A stretch of 24,000 nucleotides of DNA from Gammaproteobacteria bacterium (GCA_016182845.1 JACPFT010000018.1:10617-34616); one strand, 5' to 3'. Positions 1,594 through 14,992 are shown, counted from the stretch's first letter. Numbers and translations: made by a program. The notes: generated by a model not told the origin, from the sequence alone.

Positions 1594-1655
1594 CAAATAA
1601 GCCCGCGCCCGTCGCGTAATGCCGGTCAGTTAAGCCGTTCGTGGTGAGCCTGTCG
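1594..1655 (-). repeat. REP-like extragenic element (left copy), homologous to 8464-8533 in inverted orientation
   Basis: The reverse complement reads cgacaggctcaccacgaacggcttaactgaccggcattacgcgacgggcgcgggcttatttg. Against 8464-8533 it matches 19/22 in block 1 and 19/20 in block 2 (ttaactga[c/t]cggcattacgc), plus cgcgggctt.tttg. Confidence 0.65.
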
Positions 1656-1778
1656 TGTGGGGAGGCGATCATTTCTGGACATCTTCGCAACCATCTAGAC
1701 ACGAACAAAAACAAAACAAAATCAGTCGCTTGGTGTGTTATTTATCCGGAATGTTGCGCTGAGAAAATATGAGAGTTT

Positions 1779-2251
1779 TTGAGCGGGAAATGAGATTTTT
1801 TGCAACTATTCTGGACGGGAATGATAGCGGATTGAGCGGGAAATGTTCAGGCGCGGCGCGGCCTTGGCGGCAATCTGGCCTTCCGAACCGTTTGCTTTAA
1901 GTTGGGAACGAGTAAGCAAAAAAGTTCGGAACTGCATGCGAACTAAGTGCGAACTCACAACGCATTGAAAGATAAGGTAATTGTCCGTGCGGCATCTGCT
2001 AACCGGGCCGCGCAGTTGCCAAAGAGTAAGCAAAGAGTAGCGAACGAAGTGCGAACGGTTTTAGGGCCTGTCGGCGCGTCTAGTCCGGTCTGTCGGCAGG
2101 GTCTGTCTAGGGCTTCCGGGCGACAGTTCCGGCCTCCCCAAGTGTCACCGTGAGGCGGTCCGTGCAGTCCGCATGATGCGAACCGCTAAGCTATTGATAG
2201 TCGCTGAATTTGTCAAAGTGAGGTGGCCGCCGGTCTCTGGCAAGTGTCACC
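1779..2251 (+). repeat. Iteron-like direct-repeat array at the island's left edge
   Basis: All on the + strand. TTGAGCGGGAAATG occurs twice exactly (1779-1792, 1832-1845), with a degenerate GACGGGAATGA at 1814. GAGTAAGCAAA occurs twice (1910, 2024). GCGAAC occurs at 1938, 1949, 2040, 2051 and 2178, with variants CGGAAC at 1927 and CCGAAC at 1883. Tandem members are 11 bp apart. GGTCTGTC occurs twice (about 2088, 2100). CAAGTGTCACC occurs twice (2139, 2241). Confidence 0.6.
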
Positions 2252-3283
2252 TCAACTGTCGCTCCGGCGGCGGGTGGCAAGGCTCTCCGGGAGCGTCAGC
2301 AGGGCGGCCCAGTCCTTCAGGTTCAACAAGAGGTGACCGGCGATCGCTTGGCGTAGTTGCTCGGCGGTGTCGGCGTCGGGTGTGTAGCGGGCCGGGCCGG
2401 TGGCGTCCAGCAGTCGCGACCAGCGCCTATCCTGCGCCCGCTTTTCCCAGCCGCGCCGGGTCTGGGGCGTGTCGGGCCAACCGGCCAGCAGACTAAGCAG
2501 TTCGCCGATGGTCTGACCCTCCGCCAAGTCGAGGGTCTGCGCATAGCGCGCCCTGGCGGCGTCGAAATCGGCCTCCAGCGCCTGGAGAGCCGCCCAGCGA
2601 GCGTCCAGGCGGTCGAGGAACGCGGTCAAGGGGGCTTGCGTCTCCGGCGCTTGCGGCTCCAGGGCGGCCAGTTGGCGGACCTGGGCCGTGGTCAGCAGGT
2701 AGTCGCACAGATGACGGCCTCGCCCGCTGGGGCCGAGCTTCGATTTGGGCAGCAGCAGGAAGCCGCGCCCGTCGCGGCCTGGGATGCGCATGCCCTGGCG
2801 GTTGCGGTAGTCCAGCCAATTGGCGAACCGGCGGCCCGACTGGAACCAGCCGTGCAGGCTGTAGGCGCTTATATAGAAGGACGAGGCGTCGCGCCGCCGG
2901 ACCAAGCGGACCTCTGCCGGGCAGGGCTGGGGAGCCAGGGGCGCGAGGTAGTCCGCCAGGCCGGGGCCTGGAGCGGGGTTGCGTAGCGCCTTGGCCTGCC
3001 GGTCCAGGGTCTTGAGGGCATCGAGGGCGGCGGCGGTGCCCTTGTCCCACAGGAAGCGCCGCGTCCGCGCCAGGGTCCAATGCTCCGGGACCAGTTCCCC
3101 GGTCGGGACGGACTCAAAGAGATTCACCCGCCGATAGCCCTCGCGCCAGCCGATCCGCCAGTTCTCGCCGATGGCGTACAGGACTTCGGCGACGTAGACG
3201 CACGGATAGCGCGTGGTCCCGCTTTCCCGGTACCAGACGCTCAGCCCCTGGGGGTGGGGCAAGTCACGCTCAAGACGCGGCAC
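2252..3283 (-). CDS. Hypothetical protein (343 aa, Trp/Arg-rich, no motif recognised)
   Basis: Long ORF with a GTG start that overlaps the stop of the upstream AntA-domain gene by 14 nt, giving an operon-like arrangement. Third-position GC bias is consistent with coding. No family was recognised by eye. Confidence 0.5.
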   Translation of the reverse strand: MPRLERDLPHPQGLSVWYRESGTTRYPCVYVAEVLYAIGENWRIGWREGYRRVNLFESVPTGELVPEHWTLARTRRFLWDKGTAAALDALKTLDRQAKALRNPAPGPGLADYLAPLAPQPCPAEVRLVRRRDASSFYISAYSLHGWFQSGRRFANWLDYRNRQGMRIPGRDGRGFLLLPKSKLGPSGRGRHLCDYLLTTAQVRQLAALEPQAPETQAPLTAFLDRLDARWAALQALEADFDAARARYAQTLDLAEGQTIGELLSLLAGWPDTPQTRRGWEKRAQDRRWSRLLDATGPARYTPDADTAEQLRQAIAGHLLLNLKDWAALLTLPESLATRRRSDS

Positions 3284-4031
3284 GGCGGCCCCTCCCGATG
3301 GGCTTGCCGCACTTGGTCGGCAGCGGGGCCAGGGGTTCGGCGGGCGCGGGGTCCGGGAGCAGCGTCAATTGCTCCACCGGCTTCGGGCGGATGGGCTCGG
3401 CCTTGCGTTGCTGCTTGTAGGGGCCGGCGATCTTCGGCTCCGCCAGTTGCGCGGCCAGGGCGGCGAACGCGGCGGGCACCAGCTCGCAGGCGGCCAGGTC
3501 GGCCAGGGCCTGGGCGGTGCGCCGGGCGGTCTGGTTGACCAATACGGCGATCTCCAAGGGGTTCAGGCCGAGGCGCTGATAGCGGACGATGTTCTGATAG
3601 AGGCGGTTGGCGGCCAATAGCTCCACCTGGAGGCGGAACACCAGCACGCCGGAGGCGGTGCCGGGCAGGCTGACGGCCTGGGGGCGCTGTTCGTGTAAGC
3701 GCCGCTCGCAGTCGATGAAGTAGCGACGGACTTGCCGCCCGCGCTCCGTGCCTTCGACCATGGCCAGCTCCTTGGCGGCGTCCAGGCTCAGGCGGTATTC
3801 CTGTACGGGCCGGCCTCCTTTGGGGTTTTCAATAGGTTTATCGAAAACCTCGTAGTCCATGCCTTCTGCGAATCCGTAACGGCGGATGCGGGCCTTGATC
3901 CAGTTGCTGAAATCCTGCCGGCTCTCCAATGCCTGATGCAGTTCGCGGGCATCGACGGTGAGCAGTTCGACGCCGCCGATCTGGCCGGGTTGGGCGACGA
4001 CGGCGGGCGCAGCGTGGTTGTGGGAGTCCAT
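3270..4031 (-). CDS. AntA/AntB antirepressor-domain phage protein
   Basis: The N-terminal 110 aa (LLTVDARELHQALESRQDFSNWIKARIRRYGFAEGMDYEVF...YRLSLDAAKELAMVEGTERGRQVRRYFIDCERRL) fits the AntA/AntB antirepressor domain pattern. I chose the ATG at 4031 because GGAGG lies 8 nt upstream. The ORF stays open to 4262 through a Pro-rich stretch, so a longer product is not excluded. Confidence 0.7.
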   Translation of the reverse strand: MDSHNHAAPAVVAQPGQIGGVELLTVDARELHQALESRQDFSNWIKARIRRYGFAEGMDYEVFDKPIENPKGGRPVQEYRLSLDAAKELAMVEGTERGRQVRRYFIDCERRLHEQRPQAVSLPGTASGVLVFRLQVELLAANRLYQNIVRYQRLGLNPLEIAVLVNQTARRTAQALADLAACELVPAAFAALAAQLAEPKIAGPYKQQRKAEPIRPKPVEQLTLLPDPAPAEPLAPLPTKCGKPIGRGRRAAS

Positions 4032-4271
4032 GGGCTGTGCCTCCAGGGCGGTGGTGGGTGGTTTGGGGTCGGTGGGCGGGTTGTCGGGGAGGATGCGGGC
4101 GGGCCTCGCCGCTCGCCGGCCCGCTTTTGGGCGCGGGCCGGAAAGCGGGCAGCGCGGAACAACCGGCGCAGGTCGTTTGGTCGAGGCGGCGGGCGCGTCA
4201 AGGACGGGCGGGACGGGCACTCCGCCGCCCGCCCTGCCGGGACTGACGCAAACGCTCGGCATAGCCGCGCC

Positions 4272-4496
4272 CTAGTGCGCCAGCAACTGGTCCAGCTTGG
4301 TTTCGATGCGCTGCAAGGTGTCCAGCAGCGGGTTGGCGGCCTGGTTCCGGCGTTCCTTGCGGATGATGTCGGAAAGCAGGTTGGTGATGTCGGCAACGTG
4401 CCGCCCGGAGGACGGGGGCGTCAGCTTGGCCGGAAACGGGAAGGGAATGATGACGGCACAGGGCTGGCCGTGCTCGCCTGAGTGAATGCCTGCCAT
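4272..4496 (-). CDS. Small hypothetical protein (74 aa), first gene of the leftward operon
   Basis: ATG preceded by GAGGAG (complement of 4503-4508). GC3-rich codons. No recognisable domain. Confidence 0.55.
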   Translation of the reverse strand: MAGIHSGEHGQPCAVIIPFPFPAKLTPPSSGRHVADITNLLSDIIRKERRNQAANPLLDTLQRIETKLDQLLAH

Positions 4497-4505
4497 GACT
4501 GGCTC

Positions 4506-4697
4506 CTCTGTGTCTTACTAGGACGATGGTGTCGGGAGCTAGTAACCGCACAGAGACGGCCGGCGTATTCCCCTTGCGGGTATTGTATTAGCCGACTCCC
4601 GACATAAATCGCGGACGAGGATAGCCTAACCGCAGGCATAAAAATACCGCAAGCTGTCGGGCGCGGATAGACCGCTCTGTGTGGAGTTACTAGCTCC
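4506..4697. promoter_or_regulatory. Three copies of an operator-like motif CTCTGTG-N(2-5)-TTACTAG
   Basis: Copy 1 at 4506-4521 (ctctgtgtcttactag). Copy 2 at 4539-4555 is inverted (ctagtaaccgcacagag). Copy 3 at 4675-4693 (ctctgtgtggagttactag). Copies 2 and 3 also share the flanking ...TTACTAGCTCC. Copy 1 overlaps the SD of the 74-aa gene. Confidence 0.45.
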
Positions 4698-4704
4698 GTA
4701 TCCT

Positions 4705-5040
4705 GATGTTAATCACGTCCGCGCCATTTAACAAGTCCGTTTAACCATTCTTCCCTCCCGGTTTCGGTTCGCCCGCCTGAGCGGCCCGCCAAGGCGGCTT
4801 AGGTGCCTGGGCGCGGCATGGGTATGTCTCGCGGGGTCTTCCAGGTTTTTAACAGTGGATTAACAGGCTTGCCGCCGCGTTCGCCGGGGCGGCGGGGCGT
4901 TAAAGCGCGCTCGGTTATTTGTCGGGGTGAATTTAACGGCGCGACTGTTCAATGCGGGGCGTTAATTTATCGGCCTTTCCTTATCGGAATAATTCAGGCG
5001 GTTCCGTCGCCTATTAAATCGCACAAATGCGTTTAACAAA
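4705..5040. promoter_or_regulatory. Divergent control region with clustered TTAA(C)-core sites
   Basis: TTTAAC at 4727, 4740, 4848, 4932 and 5032. TTAACAG twice, 11 bp apart (4849, 4860). GTTAAT/GTTAAA at 4708, 4899 and 4961. GCGGGGCGTTAA direct repeat at 4892 and 4954. The region lies between the leftward operon (start 4496) and the rightward mor-like gene (start 5150). Confidence 0.4.
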
Positions 5041-5149
5041 TTACCTGTTCCATCACCGGCGAAAACCCACTGAAGCCCTGCACTGTGCCGCCCGTATCAC
5101 AACCTGTGCATCATGCAAACCTGACAGGCTTCAGTGGAAAAGGTGAAAA

Positions 5150-5605
5150 ATGGCAGCGGATTACAGCATCCTTCCCGAACAGGCACAGGATCTAATTCGG
5201 CTAATAGGCCTGGCTCCGGCCATGGCCTTGGTTCGCGAGCTTGGCGGGACGACGTTTATGGTTCCTAAGGGGAAAACGTCCCAGGGCCAAGCCGCGCTTG
5301 AGCGACTGGCAGAAATCATCGGGGACGATAAAGCCGACATATTGGCGTTCGAGTACGGCTCAACCTCCCTCTACGTTCCGCGTTGCTGGGACGCCTTGAT
5401 GAGGTTCAGAAACATCGAAATCAGCCGGGAATTTGAACGACGCTGTCGCCACGAAGCCGCCAACCATCTTGTTGCCGAGTTGGCAAGGCGTTACCGACTC
5501 AGCGATCGGCGCATTTTTAGCATCCTCAAGCAAACCGACTCGAACTATTCCAGCCCGGTGCTGGGCGCACTGTCAGAGCCCGCATGCAGCGAGGTGGCGG
5601 AATGA
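5150..5605 (+). CDS. Mor-family (phage Mu middle operon regulator-like) transcriptional activator
   Basis: The pattern YGSTSLYVPRC...RNIEISREF...LARRYRLSDRRIFSILKQ parallels Mu Mor GGGQVYIPRG...RDLRIWNDF...LTTRYGVTFNTVYKAI, ending in a C-terminal HTH. An N-terminal repeat of the first block is also present (LGGTTFMVPKG). Confidence 0.7.
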   Translation: MAADYSILPEQAQDLIRLIGLAPAMALVRELGGTTFMVPKGKTSQGQAALERLAEIIGDDKADILAFEYGSTSLYVPRCWDALMRFRNIEISREFERRCRHEAANHLVAELARRYRLSDRRIFSILKQTDSNYSSPVLGALSEPACSEVAE

Positions 5606-6189
5606 GCAACGGCAATCACCGTCTGTTCCAGATTTTCCGCGCCGGCAGGCAAACGGCCATGTCGGGCGCGACACTGGATTTCACCGAGGCGCAGCTTACC
5701 GCCTGCGCCCACGTCTACAACCGCGCCTTGCGTGCCGCGCCGCTGGTCCTGGGACACCCGGAGGACAACCGCCCGGCCTTTGGCGAAGTCCTTGGGCTGT
5801 TTTGCAAGAACGGAGGGCTGTACGCACAAGCCAAGGTCAGCGACGGGCTGGTGCAGGCGGTGCGCGCCGGGCATTACAAGAAGGTTTCCGCGTCGTTCCA
5901 TATGCCGTTCAGCCAGGACAACCCGGTCTCCGGCGCGTTCTATCTGCGTCATGTCGGTTTTCTCGGGGCAATGCCGCCTGCGGTGAAGCGGCTTGAAGCC
6001 CTGGTTTTCGGCGAAGGCGAGGCGCTTGGCTTTTCGGAGGAGGCAAACGAACCGGAGTTTTTCACAACATTACCCGTCGCAGGCGAGCGTCTCGCCCTTC
6101 ATCAAGCCGCGCAGCATTACCGGGCGGTTTGCCCCGCGCTGTCCTACGCCGAGGCGGTTGGCCTCGCCGAATCCATCATCACGTTCTAG
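5602..6189 (+). CDS. Phage capsid scaffold / prohead-protease-like protein (P2 GpO- or Mu gpI-like N-terminal fold)
   Basis: The start ATG overlaps the mor-like stop (ATGA at 5602-5605), with GAGG 7 nt upstream. The layout FQIFRAG...G.TLDFTEAQL...VLGHPEDNRPAFGEV..L....GGLYA...V.D.L..AVR.G.YKKVSASF....G.YLRHVGFLGAMPPA follows that of GpO-type scaffold/protease N-domains. The family assignment is by eye only. Confidence 0.5.
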   Translation: MSNGNHRLFQIFRAGRQTAMSGATLDFTEAQLTACAHVYNRALRAAPLVLGHPEDNRPAFGEVLGLFCKNGGLYAQAKVSDGLVQAVRAGHYKKVSASFHMPFSQDNPVSGAFYLRHVGFLGAMPPAVKRLEALVFGEGEALGFSEEANEPEFFTTLPVAGERLALHQAAQHYRAVCPALSYAEAVGLAESIITF

Positions 6190-6200
6190 AGGAGCACGCC

Positions 6201-6365
6201 ATGCGCTACCGCGTCATTACGCCCATTCTGCATAACACCATCAGCTTGCCAATCGGGGAAATCGTCGAGTTCACCGACCTGGAGGCGGCTCGTCTGATAA
6301 AGGCCAAAGCCAGCCAGCGCGCCGCGCTGCATCAGCAACTCGCCGCGGCGGGCTTGCAAGCCTGA
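6201..6365 (+). CDS. Small phage-associated hypothetical protein (54 aa)
   Basis: AGGAG lies 6 nt upstream of the ATG at 6201, right after the preceding stop at 6187-6189. The ...HN.ISLPIGEIVEFTD.EAARLI... pattern resembles small proteins found in phage head modules. Confidence 0.45.
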   Translation: MRYRVITPILHNTISLPIGEIVEFTDLEAARLIKAKASQRAALHQQLAAAGLQA

Positions 6366-6420
6366 GCGCGCTACCAGCCCCACCCCGATACCCGCTTACC
6401 CCAGCCAACCGAGAAACATC

Positions 6421-6987
6421 ATGGACATTGCCAAGAACCTGAAAGTCGCCCTTTCCACCATCAACGGCACGCTGTCGCAGCTCAAGAACGAGTTGGCCAG
6501 TACCAACAGCCAGATCGGCAGCATCAACGCGCGCATCGCCGAGCTGCAAGCCATGCCCGTCAGCCTCGCGGACTATGGCGCGCTCCTGAAGGGGCGCATC
6601 GAGAGTTACGCCGGGGAGCACGCGGACTACCTGGAATTTGAATGGTTCCGGAATGCCCCGTCGATGGGCTGCACGCCGTTCAACAAGATCCCGTTCAACC
6701 ATCTCGCCCCCAATGGCGAACTTGCGATGTTCCCCCCCGCCCTGTTTGGCCCTAGTGGTCTAACGCCGCGCGCCGCCTGTTTCTTCTTCGGCGACCAGAT
6801 TTATGAAAGCCTCATGAAGCGCGCGCAAGCCAAGTTCGGCAAGCGCTGGGGCAATGAGGAACTGCCGACGGTGGAGGAGCGCCGCAAGACCATCGCGGAA
6901 CTTGAGGCACAGGGCGCGGCCCTGGCACAACGGCGGGCCGAGCTGGAGGCGCAAATCGACGAGATCGCGGGGGCGCTAGCCGGATAA
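6421..6987 (+). CDS. Hypothetical protein with N- and C-terminal coiled-coil-like segments (188 aa)
   Basis: Clean ORF with heptad-like stretches at both ends (LSQLKNELASTNSQIGSINARIAELQ and RRKTIAELEAQGAALAQRRAELEAQIDEI). No family recognised. Confidence 0.55.
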   Translation: MDIAKNLKVALSTINGTLSQLKNELASTNSQIGSINARIAELQAMPVSLADYGALLKGRIESYAGEHADYLEFEWFRNAPSMGCTPFNKIPFNHLAPNGELAMFPPALFGPSGLTPRAACFFFGDQIYESLMKRAQAKFGKRWGNEELPTVEERRKTIAELEAQGAALAQRRAELEAQIDEIAGALAG

Positions 6988-7117
6988 CATCGGCGGCAAT
7001 CCCGAACGCCCCTGTAGGCCGGTCAGCTCGTGGCCGGCTTCCCGTCCCTCTGCCCTCCCGTCCCGGTCAACCCCAGCCGCGCCACACGGGCGCGGCCCTT
7101 ACCACAGGTTCTTGAAC

Positions 7118-8296
7118 ATGCGCCAAGGCATCTACATTTCCCCCGACGAGTTCGTCCAGTTCGGCGAACCCAGCAAGCGCCTGTCCGAGCAGATCGCCAC
7201 GCGCTCGCGCTCCACCGACTTCAACGGCCTGGGGTCCTACCTGCCGAACCCCGATCCGGTGCTCAAGAAGCTGGGGCGGGACATTCAGGTTTATCGAGAC
7301 CTGCGGGCCGATCCGGCGGTCGGCGGCGCCGTTCGCCGCCGTAAGGCGGCGGTAAAGGCCATGGAATGGGGCTTGGACCGCGAGCGGGCCGGCAGTCCGG
7401 TTGCCGAAACCGTTGCCGGCATCTTGGCGGACCTGGACCTTGAGCGCATCATCGGCGAGATGCTGGACGCGGTGCTGTACGGCTATCAGCCCATGGAGAT
7501 CCTATGGGCCAAGGTCGGGTCGCTGATCGTCCCGGCGGACATCATCAGCAAGCCGCCGGAGTGGTTCCTGTTCGGCCAGGACAACGCCTTGCGCTTCCGT
7601 TCAATTGACGAGCCGGTGAATGGCGAGACCCTGCCGCCCAACAAGTTCCTGCTGCCGCGCCAGGATGCCACGTTCGATAGCCCTTACGGCTTCCCGGACC
7701 TGTCCATGTGCTTCTGGCCGGTAACCTTCAAGAAGGGCGGGCTGAAGTTCTGGGTGAGCTTTACCGAGCGCTACGGCACGCCCTGGCTGATTGGCAAACA
7801 GCCGCGCGGCAGCGGGCCGGGCGAGACGGCGGCGCTCTTGGACAGCCTGGAAGCGATGGTGCAAGATGCCGTGGCCGTCATTCCCGATGATGCGAGCATC
7901 GAAATCCATGAGGCCGGCGGCAAGGGCGCGAGCGCCGAACTGTATGAGCGGCTGCTGATGTATTGCCGTTCAGAAATCAGCATCGCCCTACTCGGGCAGA
8001 ACCAGACCACCGAAGCCGAAAGCAACCGGGCATCGGCGCAAGCCGGCTTCAAGGTTACCCGCGACATACGCGACGGGGACGCCGGCATCGTGGCCAGCGC
8101 CTTGAACACGCTCATTCGCTGGGTCTGCGAGTTGAACTTTGGCGAAGTCGAGCGCCCGGTGTTCTCCCTCTGGGAGCAAGAGGACGTGGACAAGACCCTG
8201 GCCGAGCGCGACGAGACCTTAGCCAAGGCCGGGGCACGCTTCAGCAAGGGCTACTTCGAGCGGGTGTATGGGCTTCAGGATGGGGACTTGGTGTAG
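7118..8296 (+). CDS. Phage portal protein, Mu gp29 / DUF935 type (possibly C-terminally short)
   Basis: The N-terminus (...LPNPDPVLKKLGRDIQVYRDLRADPAVGGAVRRRKAAVKAMEWGLD...MLDAVLYGYQPMEILW) matches the DUF935 portal pattern. An in-frame TTG lies at 7112 and the ATG at 7118. At 392 aa it is shorter than Mu gp29-type portals (about 500 aa). Confidence 0.7.
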   Translation: MRQGIYISPDEFVQFGEPSKRLSEQIATRSRSTDFNGLGSYLPNPDPVLKKLGRDIQVYRDLRADPAVGGAVRRRKAAVKAMEWGLDRERAGSPVAETVAGILADLDLERIIGEMLDAVLYGYQPMEILWAKVGSLIVPADIISKPPEWFLFGQDNALRFRSIDEPVNGETLPPNKFLLPRQDATFDSPYGFPDLSMCFWPVTFKKGGLKFWVSFTERYGTPWLIGKQPRGSGPGETAALLDSLEAMVQDAVAVIPDDASIEIHEAGGKGASAELYERLLMYCRSEISIALLGQNQTTEAESNRASAQAGFKVTRDIRDGDAGIVASALNTLIRWVCELNFGEVERPVFSLWEQEDVDKTLAERDETLAKAGARFSKGYFERVYGLQDGDLV

Positions 8297-8412
8297 GCTG
8301 TAGACCAACAGTCATACCGGGTGGATGAGGGGCGTTTTTTGGGCCTATAGTGCGGGATCTGGAAGTCCAAAATAGCGCGCGAAGGTGTCCAGAATCTCCC
8401 GCCGCCTTACAT

Positions 8413-8533
8413 GTCGAACCATGAACGGCGTGGCAACCACGGAGAAAATGGCCATTCATCCTTCGACAAGCTCAGGACGAACGGCCATTTTCTCCTTAAC
8501 TGATCGGCATTACGCCCGTCGCGGGCTTTTTTG
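8413..8533 (+). repeat. REP-like element (right copy) with a partial tandem unit and a 13-bp perfect hairpin
   Basis: 8464-8533 is homologous to the reverse complement of 1594-1655. A partial unit gtcgaaccatgaacggc lies at 8413-8429. A perfect IR, ggagaaaatggcc (8441-8453) / ggccattttctcc (8483-8495), encloses the first block. It ends in gcccgtcgcgggc + TTTTTT, which is terminator-like on the + strand. Confidence 0.65.
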
Positions 8534-8634: not shown

Positions 8635-8952
8635 ATGAATGTGCGCCTGGATCACCAGAACCTGCGCATCCGCCTGTCGGCGGAGGAATTTGCCGAACTG
8701 CGCGCCGGCAAGCGCGTGCACATGACCACGCGCATGCCGGGCCTGCGTTTTCGCGCCGAAGTGGAGCAGGGCGAGGAGGCGCATGTGCGTTTCGGCCACT
8801 TTGCCGACGGCTTCCTGCTGGTCGCGCCCAGCGCCGAGCTGACGGCCTTGGCGGCACGCCTACCCAGCAAGGAAGGCCTGGAATGGCGGGTAGCGGTGGA
8901 TGCCCAGAACGCGCTCCTGGTCAGCCTGGAAGTGGACGCGGGGTTTTGCTGA
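8635..8952 (+). CDS. Hypothetical protein (105 aa)
   Basis: ATG at 8635 with GGGGAGGG upstream. Strong GC3 bias. No motif recognised. Confidence 0.55.
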   Translation: MNVRLDHQNLRIRLSAEEFAELRAGKRVHMTTRMPGLRFRAEVEQGEEAHVRFGHFADGFLLVAPSAELTALAARLPSKEGLEWRVAVDAQNALLVSLEVDAGFC

Positions 8953-9160: not shown

Positions 9161-9643
9161 TTAGCGCAGCTTGTTCTTCATCACCCGCGCTTTTTCCTTG
9201 TTCCACTCGCGTTCGCGCTCGGTTTCGCGCTTGTCGTGGGACTGCTTGCCCTTGGCCAGGCCGATCTCGCACTTGACCCGGTTGTTCTTCCAGTACAGCG
9301 ACAGCGGGACCAGGGTATAGCCCTTCTGCTGCACTTCCCGGAACAGCTTGGACAGCTCGTTGTTCTTGAGCAGCAGCTTGCGCGTCCGGGTGTTCTCCGG
9401 GACGATGTGGGTCGAGACCGTGGACAGGGCGGTGATGTGGGAGCCCAGGAGCCAGGCCTCGCCGTCCTTGAGCAGCACATAGGCGTCGGTGAGATTGACC
9501 CGGCCCTCGCGCAGGGATTTGACCTCCCAGCCGAGCAGGACCATGCCCGCCTCGTAGCGCTCTTCGATGAAGTAGTCGTGGCGGGCTTTCTTGTTGAGGG
9601 CGATGGTCCCGGTATGGGAACCCTTGTCTTTCTTCTTGTTCAT
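9161..9643 (-). CDS. smpB: SsrA-binding protein SmpB
   Basis: 160-aa ORF whose ...[43 protein letters not shown]...[31 protein letters not shown]... is a full-length SmpB pattern. Confidence 0.95.
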
Positions 9644-11050: not shown

Positions 11051-11467
11051 TTGGAAAACCTGCAACTGAAAAAAGCCGGGCTGAAGGTCACCCTCCCGCG
11101 CGTTAAGATCCTGCAAATCCTGGAAAGTTCCACGACTCATCATCTGAGCGCGGAAGATGTCTACAAGACCCTGTTGGATCAGGGCGAGGACGTGGGCCTG
11201 GCCACGGTCTATCGCGTATTGACCCAGTTCGAGGCCGCCGGCCTCGTGACCCGTCATCATTTCGAAGGCGGCCACTCGATTTTCGAGGTGAATCAGGGTG
11301 ACCACCACGATCACCTGGTCTGCCTCAAGTGCAACAAGGTCATCGAGTTCGTCGATCCCATCATCGAGGAGCGTCAGCGTGCCATCGCCGAGACCCATGG
11401 CTTCACGCTCACCGACCACAATCTCTACCTGTACGGCATCTGCAAGGACTGCGGCTCGCGCCATTGA
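11051..11467 (+). CDS. fur: Ferric uptake regulator Fur
   Basis: LKKAGLKVTLPRVKILQILE....HHLSAEDVYK.L...GEDVGLATVYRVLTQFEAAGLVTRHHFEGGHSIFE....HHDHLVCLKCNKVIEF is near-colinear with E. coli Fur. I chose the TTG at 11051 because GGAGGA lies 7 nt upstream and the length then matches Fur. The track ORF begins at 10961, inside bamE. Confidence 0.9.
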   Translation: MENLQLKKAGLKVTLPRVKILQILESSTTHHLSAEDVYKTLLDQGEDVGLATVYRVLTQFEAAGLVTRHHFEGGHSIFEVNQGDHHDHLVCLKCNKVIEFVDPIIEERQRAIAETHGFTLTDHNLYLYGICKDCGSRH

Positions 11468-11608
11468 GAGCCTGTGTACGATCTCGCTGAAGGGCGCATC
11501 GCGGCGTTAAAACTGAACTCAAAATGCTCACATACTACGTGTATGCTCCGCTTTTTCGTCCAGTTTTGCCTTGCGCTGCATCCCTTGATCGAGATCGTAC
11601 ACAGGCTC
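11468..11608. repeat. About 140-bp imperfect palindrome with 19-bp perfect termini, immediately after the fur stop
   Basis: gagcctgtgtacgatctcg (11468-11486) is the exact reverse complement of 11590-11608. Arm similarity continues inward imperfectly (...gaaggg / cccttgat...; gttaaaactgaac / gtccagttttgcc). Confidence 0.75.
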
Positions 11609-11617
11609 CAAGTTCCC

Positions 11618-11663
11618 CCGAAATGAACAACGGGCTCCCTTGGGAGCCCGTTGTTCATTTCGG
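11618..11663. terminator. 22-bp perfect palindrome between convergent fur and the protease gene (bidirectional terminator-like hairpin)
   Basis: ccgaaatgaacaacgggctccc (11618-11639) / gggagcccgttgttcatttcgg (11642-11663). There is no U-tract on either side, so an intrinsic-terminator function is not assured. Confidence 0.5.
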
Positions 11664-11673
11664 CTACTCAGGC

Positions 11674-12477
11674 TCAATGCTCGTGATCGGCGCCCGGCAG
11701 GGTGTACACGTGGTGGATGGTCAGACTGCCGTCTTTCTCGGCATAGACCCAGGTCTCGTAGTGCTTGGCCTTGTGCACCTTGGTGCCCAGGTGCTGGCCC
11801 TTCTCGTCGCCGCAGGCCGTGGAGCCATCGACGCAGAGCGTGCTGCCGGCGCCGAAGGCGGCCGCCACCGCGTAGCTGTTGTAGGTATCCACGTGGCTGT
11901 AGATGGACTGCAGCTGCTGGTAGTCGTGGTTATTGGGCCATTGGCTGGTGGGGCTGGAGGAGTAGTCCATGCAGGTGTTCTGGCTGCTGCCGTCCTCGCT
12001 GGTATGCCCCAGGCCGAAGACATGACCGGTCTCCTGGCACATGACATGGTTCATCTCTTCCGGCGTCCAGTAGGAGGAGTAACTGTCGTTCATCTTGGCC
12101 GTGCCCTGGCGGATATGGCCCTTGCTGTCCAGGTTGATGGAGGCCAGGCCCAGCCATCCGTTATTGCCGTAACTGGCATTGCAGACGCGCATCTCGCCGG
12201 ACACCATGGCGCAGCGCTTGCGGGCCTTGGTGCTGTCGTCGCGGGCGGCGATGCTGAAATTGAAGATCCCGGACTGGGCCCATTTCTGCAGCGAGGTATC
12301 GAACTCGCTCTGCCAGTTGGCGGTGACGCTGTCGACGGTTTGCAGGGTGAACGGATTGGCGGTGCGCGCCCAGTGGTAATTATTCCAGGAGTGGCTCGCC
12401 TGACTGGCCGTGGCGAAGCCCAGAGCGGCGGGAATGGCGAGGACTGTTACCGCTTTCGTGAGTGAACTGTTCATCAT
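11674..12477 (-). CDS. Secreted metzincin-like zinc metalloprotease homologue with a variant QExxHxxGxxH motif
   Basis: 267 aa. Signal peptide (AIPAALGFATASQA). Motif block NHVMCQETGHVFGLGHT followed by CMDY (Met-turn-like). The start could be the second ATG at 12474. Confidence 0.65.
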   Translation of the reverse strand: MMNSSLTKAVTVLAIPAALGFATASQASHSWNNYHWARTANPFTLQTVDSVTANWQSEFDTSLQKWAQSGIFNFSIAARDDSTKARKRCAMVSGEMRVCNASYGNNGWLGLASINLDSKGHIRQGTAKMNDSYSSYWTPEEMNHVMCQETGHVFGLGHTSEDGSSQNTCMDYSSSPTSQWPNNHDYQQLQSIYSHVDTYNSYAVAAAFGAGSTLCVDGSTACGDEKGQHLGTKVHKAKHYETWVYAEKDGSLTIHHVYTLPGADHEH

Positions 12478-12640
12478 GAACCTCTGTTCGTTGAAAACTC
12501 GTTGTTTTGGGTAAAAGAACGCTCCCGGTACTGCGAAATCGCTCCGGTATAAAAAGCGTAGCAGGGGGTAGAAGCTCTGCTAGGGCGTGGGGAGAGAAAC
12601 TGAACAGGATGGACCAGTTGGCGCAATAAACGCAGGACTT

Positions 12641-12916
12641 TTAATAGCGGAATTTTATTTGCAGGAGGTGGTAGCCAAACGAGGTCTTGATGGGGCCGTG
12701 CACCGGGCCTTCGGCGAGGGAAAACACGGCCTTGTCCATGGCCGGCACCAGCTGGCCGGGACGCACTTCCCCCAGCTCGCCGCCCTTCTTGCCGGAGGGG
12801 CAGATGGAGAACTCCTTGGCCAATTTTGCGAAGTCCTCGCCCCGATCCAGGCGGATCTTCAGGGCTTCGGCCTCGGGCTTGGTCTTGACCAGGATATGGC
12901 GGCAGATGGCGGGCAT
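12641..12916 (-). CDS. ppiC: Parvulin-type peptidyl-prolyl cis-trans isomerase PpiC
   Basis: 91 aa from the ATG at 12916. HILVK....A..........GEDFAKLAKEFSICPSGKKGGELGEVRPGQLVPAMDKAVFS....PVHGPIKTSFGYHLLQI is colinear with E. coli PpiC (Par10). Confidence 0.85.
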   Translation of the reverse strand: MPAICRHILVKTKPEAEALKIRLDRGEDFAKLAKEFSICPSGKKGGELGEVRPGQLVPAMDKAVFSLAEGPVHGPIKTSFGYHLLQIKFRY

Positions 12917-12944
12917 GGGGCTCTGGTGGTTTTTGGAATGAAAT

Positions 12945-13048
12945 CCCCCTCTCCCTAACCCTTTGTGAGGCGAATCCTTGCGCCTCACCCCTGCGGGGCT
13001 TGTGCGAAAAATCGCTCCAGGCGATTTTTTCCCACCAGGGGAGAGGGG
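12945..13048. repeat. Nested palindromic REP-type element in the thiC/ppiC spacer (terminator-like)
   Basis: Outer IR cccctctcc / ggagagggg (about 12946-12955 / 13039-13048). Inner hairpin gtgaggcg-N8-cgcctcac at 12965-12988. Inner hairpin gaaaaatcgc-tccag-gcgatttttt at 13006-13030. It sits directly downstream of the thiC stop at 13076. Confidence 0.55.
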
Positions 13049-13075
13049 ACAGGAGAGGGCGTCGATCGAGGGCGT

Positions 13076-14992
<1,917 letters not shown>

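Follow-up and report, generated by a model that had tools for sequence, protein, structure and literature searches.

A Mu-type transposable island without a transposase: a candidate natural mini-Mu carrying a conserved short-protease cassette

Mu-like transposable phages are common in Proteobacteria. Laboratory mini-Mu and Mud elements are engineered Mu derivatives that keep both ends of the phage without the A and B genes or the late genes, and a helper Mu complements and packages mini-Mu elements. Phage satellites such as P4, PICI/SaPI, cfPICI, PLE and PICMI are also small elements, and to our knowledge all those described integrate through tyrosine or serine recombinases. We found no description of a natural Mu-type satellite or mini-Mu in the searchable literature, whose coverage is incomplete. 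Here we analyse a 24,000-nucleotide stretch (JACPFT010000018.1:10617-34616, assembly GCA_016182845.1), hereafter the window, from a gammaproteobacterial metagenome-assembled genome (MAG) of roughly 70% GC. It carries a 6,756-bp island of phage-derived genes between Mu-type termini. We consider the island to be a non-autonomous Mu-type transposable element, a natural 'mini-Mu' that probably needs a full-size Mu-like phage in order to move, and put the probability of this reading at roughly 0.55.

Like laboratory mini-Mu and Mud elements, the island has both Mu-type termini, no transposase and a length of a few kilobases. It differs from them in that it and its relatives are natural, in being akin not to coliphage Mu but to Mu-like phages, BcepMu-like ones included, from Beta- and Gammaproteobacteria, and in belonging to a family with a conserved late cassette that the engineered elements do not have. 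With the phage satellites it shares small size, regulatory genes and homologues of capsid-assembly proteins in place of a full virion module. The short prohead protease of the island family, and a TerS-like gene for a gp27 N-terminal domain found in relatives, parallel CpmB and Ccm of SaPI, satellite-encoded proteins akin to the scaffold or capsid proteins of the helper. Unlike the satellites, the island has no integrase, excisionase or att site; members of the family enter varied targets by DDE transposition, which leaves a duplication of 5 or 6 bp, some relatives have a MuA and MuB of their own for replication, and helper dependence is deduced here from genes. The original prediction had seen in this gene set the functional logic of P4 or PICI-type satellites. 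That likeness holds for a small island with regulatory genes and capsid-assembly homologues, but this copy has neither an integrase with its att site nor a TerS or pac-specificity gene that might redirect packaging.

The closest autonomous systems are the BcepMu- and Mu-like phages, which share with the island TG…CA termini, subterminal repeats, Mor, a gpI-type protease (49% identity) and a gp29 portal (67% over 391 aa); the left and right ends of BcepMu are homologous to the ends of the island's relatives. However, the island measures 6.8 kb against about 37 kb for these phages, has no A/B, lysis, terminase, capsid or tail genes, encodes a protease without about 170 scaffold residues, and carries a gene for a 188-aa protein that is absent from the 50,697 phage records searched. 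MITEs (miniature inverted-repeat transposable elements) and other non-autonomous transposons have likewise kept their ends, lost their transposase and become dependent on mobilisation in trans. The island differs from these in having at least eight expressed-looking genes, a phage-derived cassette among them, and in probably needing helper virions to pass between cells. The family is widespread and apparently undescribed.

The limits of the island were set at positions 1656 and 8411 of the window, which bears out and sharpens the 1660-8300 or so of the original prediction. The element begins with TG (TGTGGGGAGG at 1656) and finishes with CA (GCCTTACA at 8411), termini that are characteristic of BcepMu-type elements (PMC2628397). 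Its first 33 bases form an imperfect inverted repeat with the last 33, matching at 24 positions, and a perfect 5-bp target-site duplication, TGTCG, lies on either side (1651-1655 and 8412-8416). The window holds 1,029 TG..CA pairs bordered by a 5-bp direct repeat, and the island's pair alone exceeds 20 matches out of 33. Sites of the form T[CT]T[GA]GAC are also repeated at both ends. Based on its TG…CA ends, inverted repeats and duplication, the island is a Mu-type transposition product without a transposase or integrase: the ends, the short duplication and Mor are those of a Mu-type element, while the DDE transposase MuA and the AAA+ protein MuB are missing. A right terminus at 7069, proposed from clusters of the GGACGGGAA motif, would have placed the portal gene outside the element; it was superseded by the termini at 1656 and 8411 with their duplication.

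The insertion sits in a repetitive extragenic palindrome (REP)-like sequence between a subtilase gene and a DUF7009 gene, with smpB beyond. The original prediction had described the island as lying beside smpB; smpB is indeed close, but it was not the target, as the DUF7009 gene intervenes and the window contains no tRNA or tmRNA gene. In-silico excision of 1656-8416 fuses the flanks into one REP-like unit (…GAGCCTGTCG joined to AACCATGAACGG…), and the empty intergenic region is predicted to fold as a long palindrome or hairpin of -127.9 kcal/mol. Insertion inside a long palindrome explains both the inverted REP arms found on the two sides and the breaks seen there in independent contigs. The arrangement is best explained by DDE transposition into the intergenic palindrome, leaving the 5-bp duplication. 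This REP/MITE-like palindrome translates into the familiar artefact peptides 'FVLSLSKDE / FDKLRTNG', and short-read contigs from three samples all break within it.

The AT-rich region inside the left terminus carries the motifs TTCTGGACATC at 1673, ATCTAGACACG at 1692 and TTCTGGACGGG at 1809, and three further motifs occur twice in it: TTGAGCGGGAAATG (1779, 1832), AGTTGxxAAxGAGTAAGCAAA (1900, 2014) and GCGAACnAAGTGCGAAC (1938, 2040). By analogy with the ends of Mu and BcepMu, these repeated motifs are candidate transposase-binding or pac sites. A cognate full-size Mu-like prophage would be recognised by terminal sites of the TTCTGGACA type. When viral contigs were searched for a helper lineage bearing the core of the island's terminal repeat, TTCTGGACAYCTTCGC, 79 single matches were obtained, which is about the chance level, and none was Mu-like.

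Between these termini the minus strand encodes a 343-aa open reading frame (ORF), an AntA-domain protein and a 74-aa ORF, and the plus strand encodes Mor, a prohead protease homologue, ORFs of 54 and 188 aa, and a Portal_Mu protein (Table 1). The AntA, Mor, head-protease and DUF935 portal assignments, made originally from the sequence alone, were all confirmed by Pfam and PHROG matches, and the four ORFs that had been listed as orphans (343, 74, 54 and 188 aa) are indeed without clear function. Pfam, PHROGs, NCBIfam, PADLOC and tblastn (queries were Mu and BcepMu proteins, including Mu A/B and BcepMu gp8/gp9) detected in the island neither an integrase nor MuA/MuB, nor any gene for terminase, capsid, tail or lysis, again as predicted, and the defence-system (PADLOC) and NCBIfam models had no match to it. 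The orphan ORFs were checked for a recombinase or transposase, either of which would make the element autonomous, and none turned out to be one.

Table 1. Features of the island and its insertion site, in window coordinates.
Feature	Position	Strand	Evidence or remark
Left half of host REP-like palindrome (insertion target)	1594..1655		inverted-repeat arms I5, I9, I12 pair with 8464-8533; breakpoint of independent Logan contigs
Left terminus and terminal inverted repeat (TGTGGGGAGGCGATCATTTCTGGACATCTTCGC)	1656..1688	+	24/33 repeat, TG start
AT-rich non-coding left-end region with repeated short motifs	1689..2251	+	candidate transposase-binding or pac sites
343-aa ORF, near-orphan cargo gene	2252..3283	-	no family match
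AntA-domain antirepressor-like protein, 253 aa from Met78	3270..4031 (longest ORF to 4262)	-	Pfam AntA E 4.6e-24; PHROG 5817 'anti-repressor Ant' E 1.6e-39
74-aa ORF, first gene of minus-strand operon	4272..4496	-	gene call in independent assemblies; weak PHROG 1103 match
sRNA-Xcc1-family RNA element, 5' of the 74-aa/AntA/343-aa operon	4522..4604	-	Rfam RF02221
Mor-family transcription activator, 151 aa	5150..5605	+	Pfam Mor E 3.8e-14; PHROG 836 E 2.2e-34
Short prohead protease, 195 aa	5602..6189	+	PHROG 976 E 1.6e-44; start overlaps Mor stop codon (ATGA)
DUF7210-like ORF, 54 aa	6201..6365	+	Pfam DUF7210 E 2.5e-4, 21 bits, below gathering score 27
All-helical coiled-coil protein, 188 aa (family hallmark)	6421..6987	+	conserved homologues; no PDB match
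C-terminally truncated Mu-type portal, 392 aa of ~490	7118..8296	+	Portal_Mu/DUF935 E 4.7e-95
Right terminal inverted repeat and terminus (…GCCTTACA)	8379..8411	+	same inverted-repeat analysis
Right TGTCG copy (8412-8416) and remaining host REP-like palindrome	8412..8533		Logan contigs with smpB and DUF7009 stop at 8483

The protease is the most informative of these products. It combines an assemblin-fold protease domain with a C-terminal helical hairpin and does without the central scaffold segment of gpI. Its identity to the 376-aa gp32 of BcepMu is confined to residues 2-141. The AlphaFold2 model (predicted local distance difference test, pLDDT, 85.7) shows a β-rich N-terminal domain, a disordered linker and a confident C-terminal hairpin; Foldseek matched the N-terminal domain to herpesvirus assemblin proteases with a probability of 1.0, with T4 gp21 lower in the list. 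His52, Ser96 and His117 are invariant among 34 sequences, and presumably correspond to the Ser-His-His triad of the assemblin fold. The program hhalign pairs the hairpin (…LALHQAAQHYRAVCPALSYAEAV…) with the extreme C-terminus of full-length Mu-type proteases (95.7%, E 9e-9), from which it follows that the short protease is gpI stripped of about 170 residues of central scaffold. Many phages have scaffold or protease proteins whose C-terminal helix-turn-helix binds the capsid protein, and by analogy the short form may still be able to enter procapsids.

This short form is a class of its own. About 100 clusters of homologues of 181-250 aa were retrieved at 94-99% query coverage, and across 171 loci the length of the protease-homologue ORF is bimodal. 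Following members of the short class (about 180-207 aa, n about 23) the 188-aa gene was found in 10 of the 14 testable loci and a capsid gene in none; after those of the long class (300-460 aa, n = 132) came the major capsid gene in 86 loci out of 109, and never the 188-aa gene. In unsaturated pairs the ratio of non-synonymous to synonymous substitution rates (dN/dS) was 0.08-0.22 in the protease gene and 0.13-0.19 in the 188-aa gene, and both cassette genes are under purifying selection. We had also considered the protease as a random truncation or one-off decay product, an interpretation that was dropped given the conservation of the class of about 200 aa.

Chromobacterium, Vogesella and metagenomes encode full-length homologues of the 188-aa protein (186-192 aa, 48-63% identical), which AlphaFold2 models as an elongated helical coiled coil (pLDDT 85) in the case of the island's own copy. 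Its gene had no tblastn match in the deposited phage records mentioned above, and a scan of genome contigs with this family returned three loci only. Read-through tblastn alignments had raised the idea that it is the detached scaffold half of gpI; this found no support, as profile comparison gave a probability of 12% and Foldseek returned generic coiled coils. The 54-aa ORF matches the 57-aa ORF of a related locus, L019 (BLASTP E 1e-7; loci are given by our L numbers), and its positional homologues in L103 and L187 pass the Pfam threshold for DUF7210.

The original prediction asked whether the same reduced gene set would recur in unrelated strains, and it does: Mor, the short protease and the 188-aa protein are found together in many unrelated taxa. 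The plus-strand cassette of the island (Mor, 195-aa protease, 54-aa DUF7210-like ORF, 188-aa coiled coil) has the order and lengths seen throughout the family, and in its short protease (about 200 aa) both the protease domain and the C-terminal hairpin are retained. The cassette recurs in more than 20 loci of Beta- and Gammaproteobacteria, and was found in C. violaceum, Vogesella, P. chlororaphis, MAGs of Dechloromonas, Zoogloeaceae and Thiobacillus, and contigs from IMG/VR and metagenomes. In Chromobacterium and Vogesella, Mor is followed by a protease homologue of 201-202 aa and then directly by the 188-aa gene.

Six of these relatives have complete ends and no detectable transposase. They are found in C. 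violaceum (L008, 7,959 bp, duplication CGTGGA), in Vogesella, where phoD is split (L010, 5,780 bp, CGCAGC), in P. chlororaphis (L020, 7,222 bp, CGAAGG), in two IMG/VR contigs (L017, 6,306 bp, TTCAGC; L018, 8,499 bp, CCAAGA) and in a metagenome contig (L101, 9,395 bp, CTCGTC). All six (5.8-9.4 kb) have BcepMu-type ends on the left (TG…GTGAGATAAATCC…) and on the right, and each lies at a site of its own within a perfect 6-bp duplication; the left ends were located by searching upstream for the matching duplication. In L008, L010, L017, L018, L020 and L102 the 188-aa gene is last, and is followed by a terminator and, about 90-130 bp on, by a terminus like the BcepMu right end (…TTTCGCGCCGCGCTTCA). 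Two pairs among them are especially telling. L020 and L101 have unrelated flanks, as do L008 and L018, and in both comparisons the DNA becomes homologous from the left terminus onwards; next to the left end each pair has genes for a tail assembly chaperone and a tape measure, with a short gp27-like gene in front of them in L020 and L101, and on the right side stand Mor, the protease of about 200 aa and the 188-aa gene wherever sequence is available. Each pair thus shows a derived, transposase-less architecture that has been inserted independently, for which mobilisation in trans is the best explanation.

Other relatives (7.5-9 kb) are autonomous, with a repressor, ner, MuA and MuB. The element at L103 (about 9.2 kb) encodes a repressor, ner, MuA, MuB, GemA, Rha, Mor, the short protease, DUF7210 and a 176-aa protein, and three tandem terminal sites at its right end are mirrored in inverted orientation at its left end. 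An element of about 8 kb with the same layout, including MuA/MuB, lies between host genes in the 38-kb metagenome contig ERZ1426830, and MuA/MuB are encoded at L187 too. The MuA/MuB-bearing P0155 element of about 7.5 kb occurs in many samples with at least two truly different left junctions. The island's Mor is homologous to that of the MuA/MuB-bearing mini-elements, and its 5-bp duplication, Mor type and DUF7210 ORF tie it to this MuA-type subgroup (L103, L019, L187) and set it apart from the BcepMu-end subgroup with its 6-bp duplications. Complete phages also exist in which the genes run gp10-like, TnpA, TnpB … GemA, Mor, protease, capsid … tail; leaving aside the transposition block and the virion genes, which they lack, the small elements follow this same order, and such phages are plausible ancestors or helpers. 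The family is best explained as a set of compact elements of 5.8-9.4 kb derived from BcepMu/Mu-like transposable phages, which have lost capsid, terminase, tail and lysis genes and keep both ends, the regulatory genes and the late cassette, with DUF7210 in one subtype.

Several relatives show features of independent interest. In Vogesella sp. XCS3 (CP085530) the Tat signal and first 55 or so codons of phoD are separated from the rest of the gene (L010, 4762-4953 and 10629-12566), and the 5.8-kb mini-element has probably inactivated PhoD. The 8.5-kb element of L018 lies within a P2/Mu-like tail cluster, with Tail_P2_I and tail-fibre genes on both sides (77-2236 and 11390-13945), and is a mobile element inserted into another prophage or tailocin cluster. 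At L187-L193, a 260-bp MITE-like repeat (CTAGGAGTCTGTCGGACTT…AAGTCCGACAGACTCCTAG) adjoins the 7.5-kb MuA/MuB element over the 260 bp or so left of its terminus, and the flanks beyond the repeat differ among assemblies, for which either several insertions or joins made through the repeat during assembly could be responsible. In L191 the last gene of the element has an IS1595 transposase gene directly beside it. In the Thiobacillus MAG (L014, 2693-3682) the cassette is disrupted by an insertion sequence (IS), an IS4/IS5-type DDE transposase gene standing before the 188-aa gene in place of Mor and the protease. One or two additional virion genes are found in each of L017 (5987-7189), L008 (2957-6141), L020 (4729-7833) and L021 (6005-7870), encoding a gpD-like baseplate hub, a tape measure (855-908 aa) together with a tail assembly chaperone, or both F and G. 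C. violaceum, L018 and P. chlororaphis have the tape-measure pair in conserved form.

From the gene content and the behaviour of laboratory mini-Mu, a working model can be proposed for how such an element would operate. A co-resident or infecting full-size Mu-like phage would supply MuA and MuB, and the element would replicate by transposition from its own ends. The helper's headful machinery would then package it from the left end, as happens with laboratory mini-Mu, while the Ant module and Mor would couple its expression to the helper cycle. The short protease, by virtue of the C-terminal hairpin it shares with gpI, could enter helper procapsids and, together with the coiled-coil protein, might alter capsid assembly by changing capsid size or by interference. 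A natural mini-Mu family would extend the satellite and non-autonomous-element concept to transposable phages, and a conserved cassette built on a scaffold-deleted prohead protease would represent a new candidate mechanism for manipulating capsid assembly. It would also account for many of the small 'Mu-like remnants' to which annotation pipelines give the label of defective prophage. Cultured carriers exist in Vogesella sp. XCS3, Chromobacterium violaceum and Pseudomonas chlororaphis (CP027656).

A broader proposal, which we advance only tentatively, is that these elements form an unrecognised class of phage satellite: transposable satellites of Mu-like phages that borrow or carry MuA/MuB, are packaged by the helper's headful mechanism, and use a Mor-driven scaffold-less protease and coiled coil to shrink or sabotage heads. 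If this is so, they would be natural agents of 'mini-muduction', since Mu-type packaging takes in adjacent DNA, and would offer a possible transduction route for host genes beside their insertion sites. The mini-Mu reading is weakened in part by the minus-strand Ant module, which is portable phage cargo of lambdoid type and not a family hallmark. The sRNA-Xcc1 element upstream of it (full length, 70.9 bits against a gathering score of 53, E 8.5e-12) lies in a stretch that shares about 77% identity with the DNA next to antirepressor genes in over 100 Stx/lambdoid phages, which marks the module as cargo, and relatives have other antirepressor-like genes (Rha, a 237-aa protein) in the equivalent region. 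The element may be a leader or small RNA that travels with ant modules; in APSE phages, a member of the same family was reported upstream of a gene for an ORF6N-domain protein (10.1101/2020.03.17.996009).

Several observations count against reading the island itself as a working mini-Mu. The portal ORF matches the 491-aa BcepMu portal at 67% identity over residues 1-391 and breaks off there. Among its 120 best homologues, drawn from 5.8 billion proteins, only the window copy has about 392 aa; the other 119 have 483-506 aa and are at most 72% identical. From about 8290 onwards, over the 121 bp that lead up to the right terminus, the sequence is no longer homologous to phage portals but is that of the right-end segment. 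Since the truncation is unique to this copy, it points to at least one deletion and to decay, and with the 3' end of the portal gene lost the copy may no longer be fully functional. The transposase block, too, could have been deleted in situ after an autonomous insertion. There is no gp27/TerS-like gene in the window, though several relatives have a gene for the gp27 N-terminal domain, and no helper phage is visible within its 24 kb. The left-end and pac sites were proposed from motif repeats. The 188-aa protein had generic coiled coils as its Foldseek matches, with none in the PDB, and showed no detectable homology to scaffold proteins or regions. No sibling of this exact element was found elsewhere, the three carrier samples share the same junctions, and the mobility of this particular copy is unproven.

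In the strongest rival explanation, which we consider unlikely, a complete or compact autonomous Mu-like element inserted here, shed the repressor/ner/A/B block and the majority of its late genes by internal deletion, and is now inert, its ends and duplication persisting only because the deletions were internal. The portal cut at residue 391 speaks for this, as do the order of protease, 188-aa gene and portal, which is not colinear with Mu or BcepMu, the finding of no second copy or alternative junction in three samples, and the visible IS disruption of L014. Look-ups with the exact SmpB, subtilase, Mor and portal proteins for an empty site or an alternative junction returned only contigs of the same study, which break at the REP repeat. 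In L008, L010, L017, L018, L020 and L102 the 188-aa gene is last before the terminator and right terminus, a rule that the window breaks with its intervening truncated portal and L021 breaks with F and G genes in that position. In L021 the 188-aa gene is followed by a 125-aa ORF that weakly resembles portal residues 392-489 (E 0.045), its alignment beginning just where the window fragment stops, and then by F, G and a BcepMu-like right end. This faint similarity hints that an ancestor may have had portal, F and G downstream of the cassette, with different deletions afterwards, and we treat the portal fragment in the window as a one-off decay.

Against an inert relic, however, the other ORFs are all open; Mor, protease, DUF7210 and the 188-aa gene keep the family order and lengths, and the family is under purifying selection. 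The original prediction had called the ORFs intact, which fails for the portal but stands for the rest, including the protease with its conserved length. Six other transposase-less elements keep their ends and duplications, and the two pairs of identical architecture at different sites would be hard to obtain by independent decay in place. An ordinary defective (cryptic) Mu-like prophage with a random, disrupted gene subset was also considered and set aside, the portal alone being disrupted while the rest recurs across genera under purifying selection. Of the two possibilities originally raised, a decayed prophage or a helper-dependent mini-Mu, we therefore favour the second; it is largely supported at the level of the family, while function and the activity of this copy are unproven.

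A domesticated anti-phage island seems more doubtful still. Here a Mor-activated, scaffold-less protease aimed at the capsid would poison Mu-like capsid assembly together with the coiled coil, with the Ant/sRNA module as sensor or regulator and mobility incidental. Purifying selection on the cassette even in transposase-less elements, its stable position in C. violaceum strains, and the retention in the protease of catalytic residues and the hairpin common to full-length gpI would all fit. But no PADLOC defence model matches, and the cassette is always found within transposon ends and travels with MuA/MuB in the autonomous relatives, which indicates selection at the level of the element; as helper interference is also satellite behaviour, the explanation in any case overlaps with that of a helper-dependent mini-Mu. 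Finally, a chimeric MAG join at repeated REP sequences, conceivable because the source is a MAG and independent contigs break at the flanking repeats, is extremely improbable, since a separate Logan assembly reproduces 1626-8441 at 100% identity, with all internal junctions and both termini, and a matching 5-bp duplication with junctions that reconstitute one REP unit is unlike a chimera.

Among the remaining genes of the island, the 343-aa ORF had no match in Pfam, PHROGs, PADLOC, NCBIfam or PDB and none by tblastn in the same phage records, and has 9 representatives only among 1.84 billion proteins. The AntA gene is also called at 253 aa in L005. In composition, the island is less uniform than the AT-richer block first described: GC is 52-60% at 1500-2250 and 4250-5500 but host-like, at about 70%, over 2250-4250, and a GC content as low as 56-62% is also seen in the core genes near smpB and fur.

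The host genes nearest to the island encode an S8 subtilase (25-1578), the DUF7009 protein (8635-8952) and SmpB (9161-9643, minus strand), and ratA, rnfH, bamE, fur, an M10-like protease gene, ppiC, thiC and pqiB lie further along the window. The DUF7009 gene adjoins smpB in independent contigs as well, and on account of this conserved position it is host DNA outside the island. Between fur and ppiC, the minus strand encodes a secreted M10/matrixin-like metalloprotease of 267 aa (11674-12477) with a lower GC content of 56-60%, which may be another acquired gene in an otherwise core neighbourhood.

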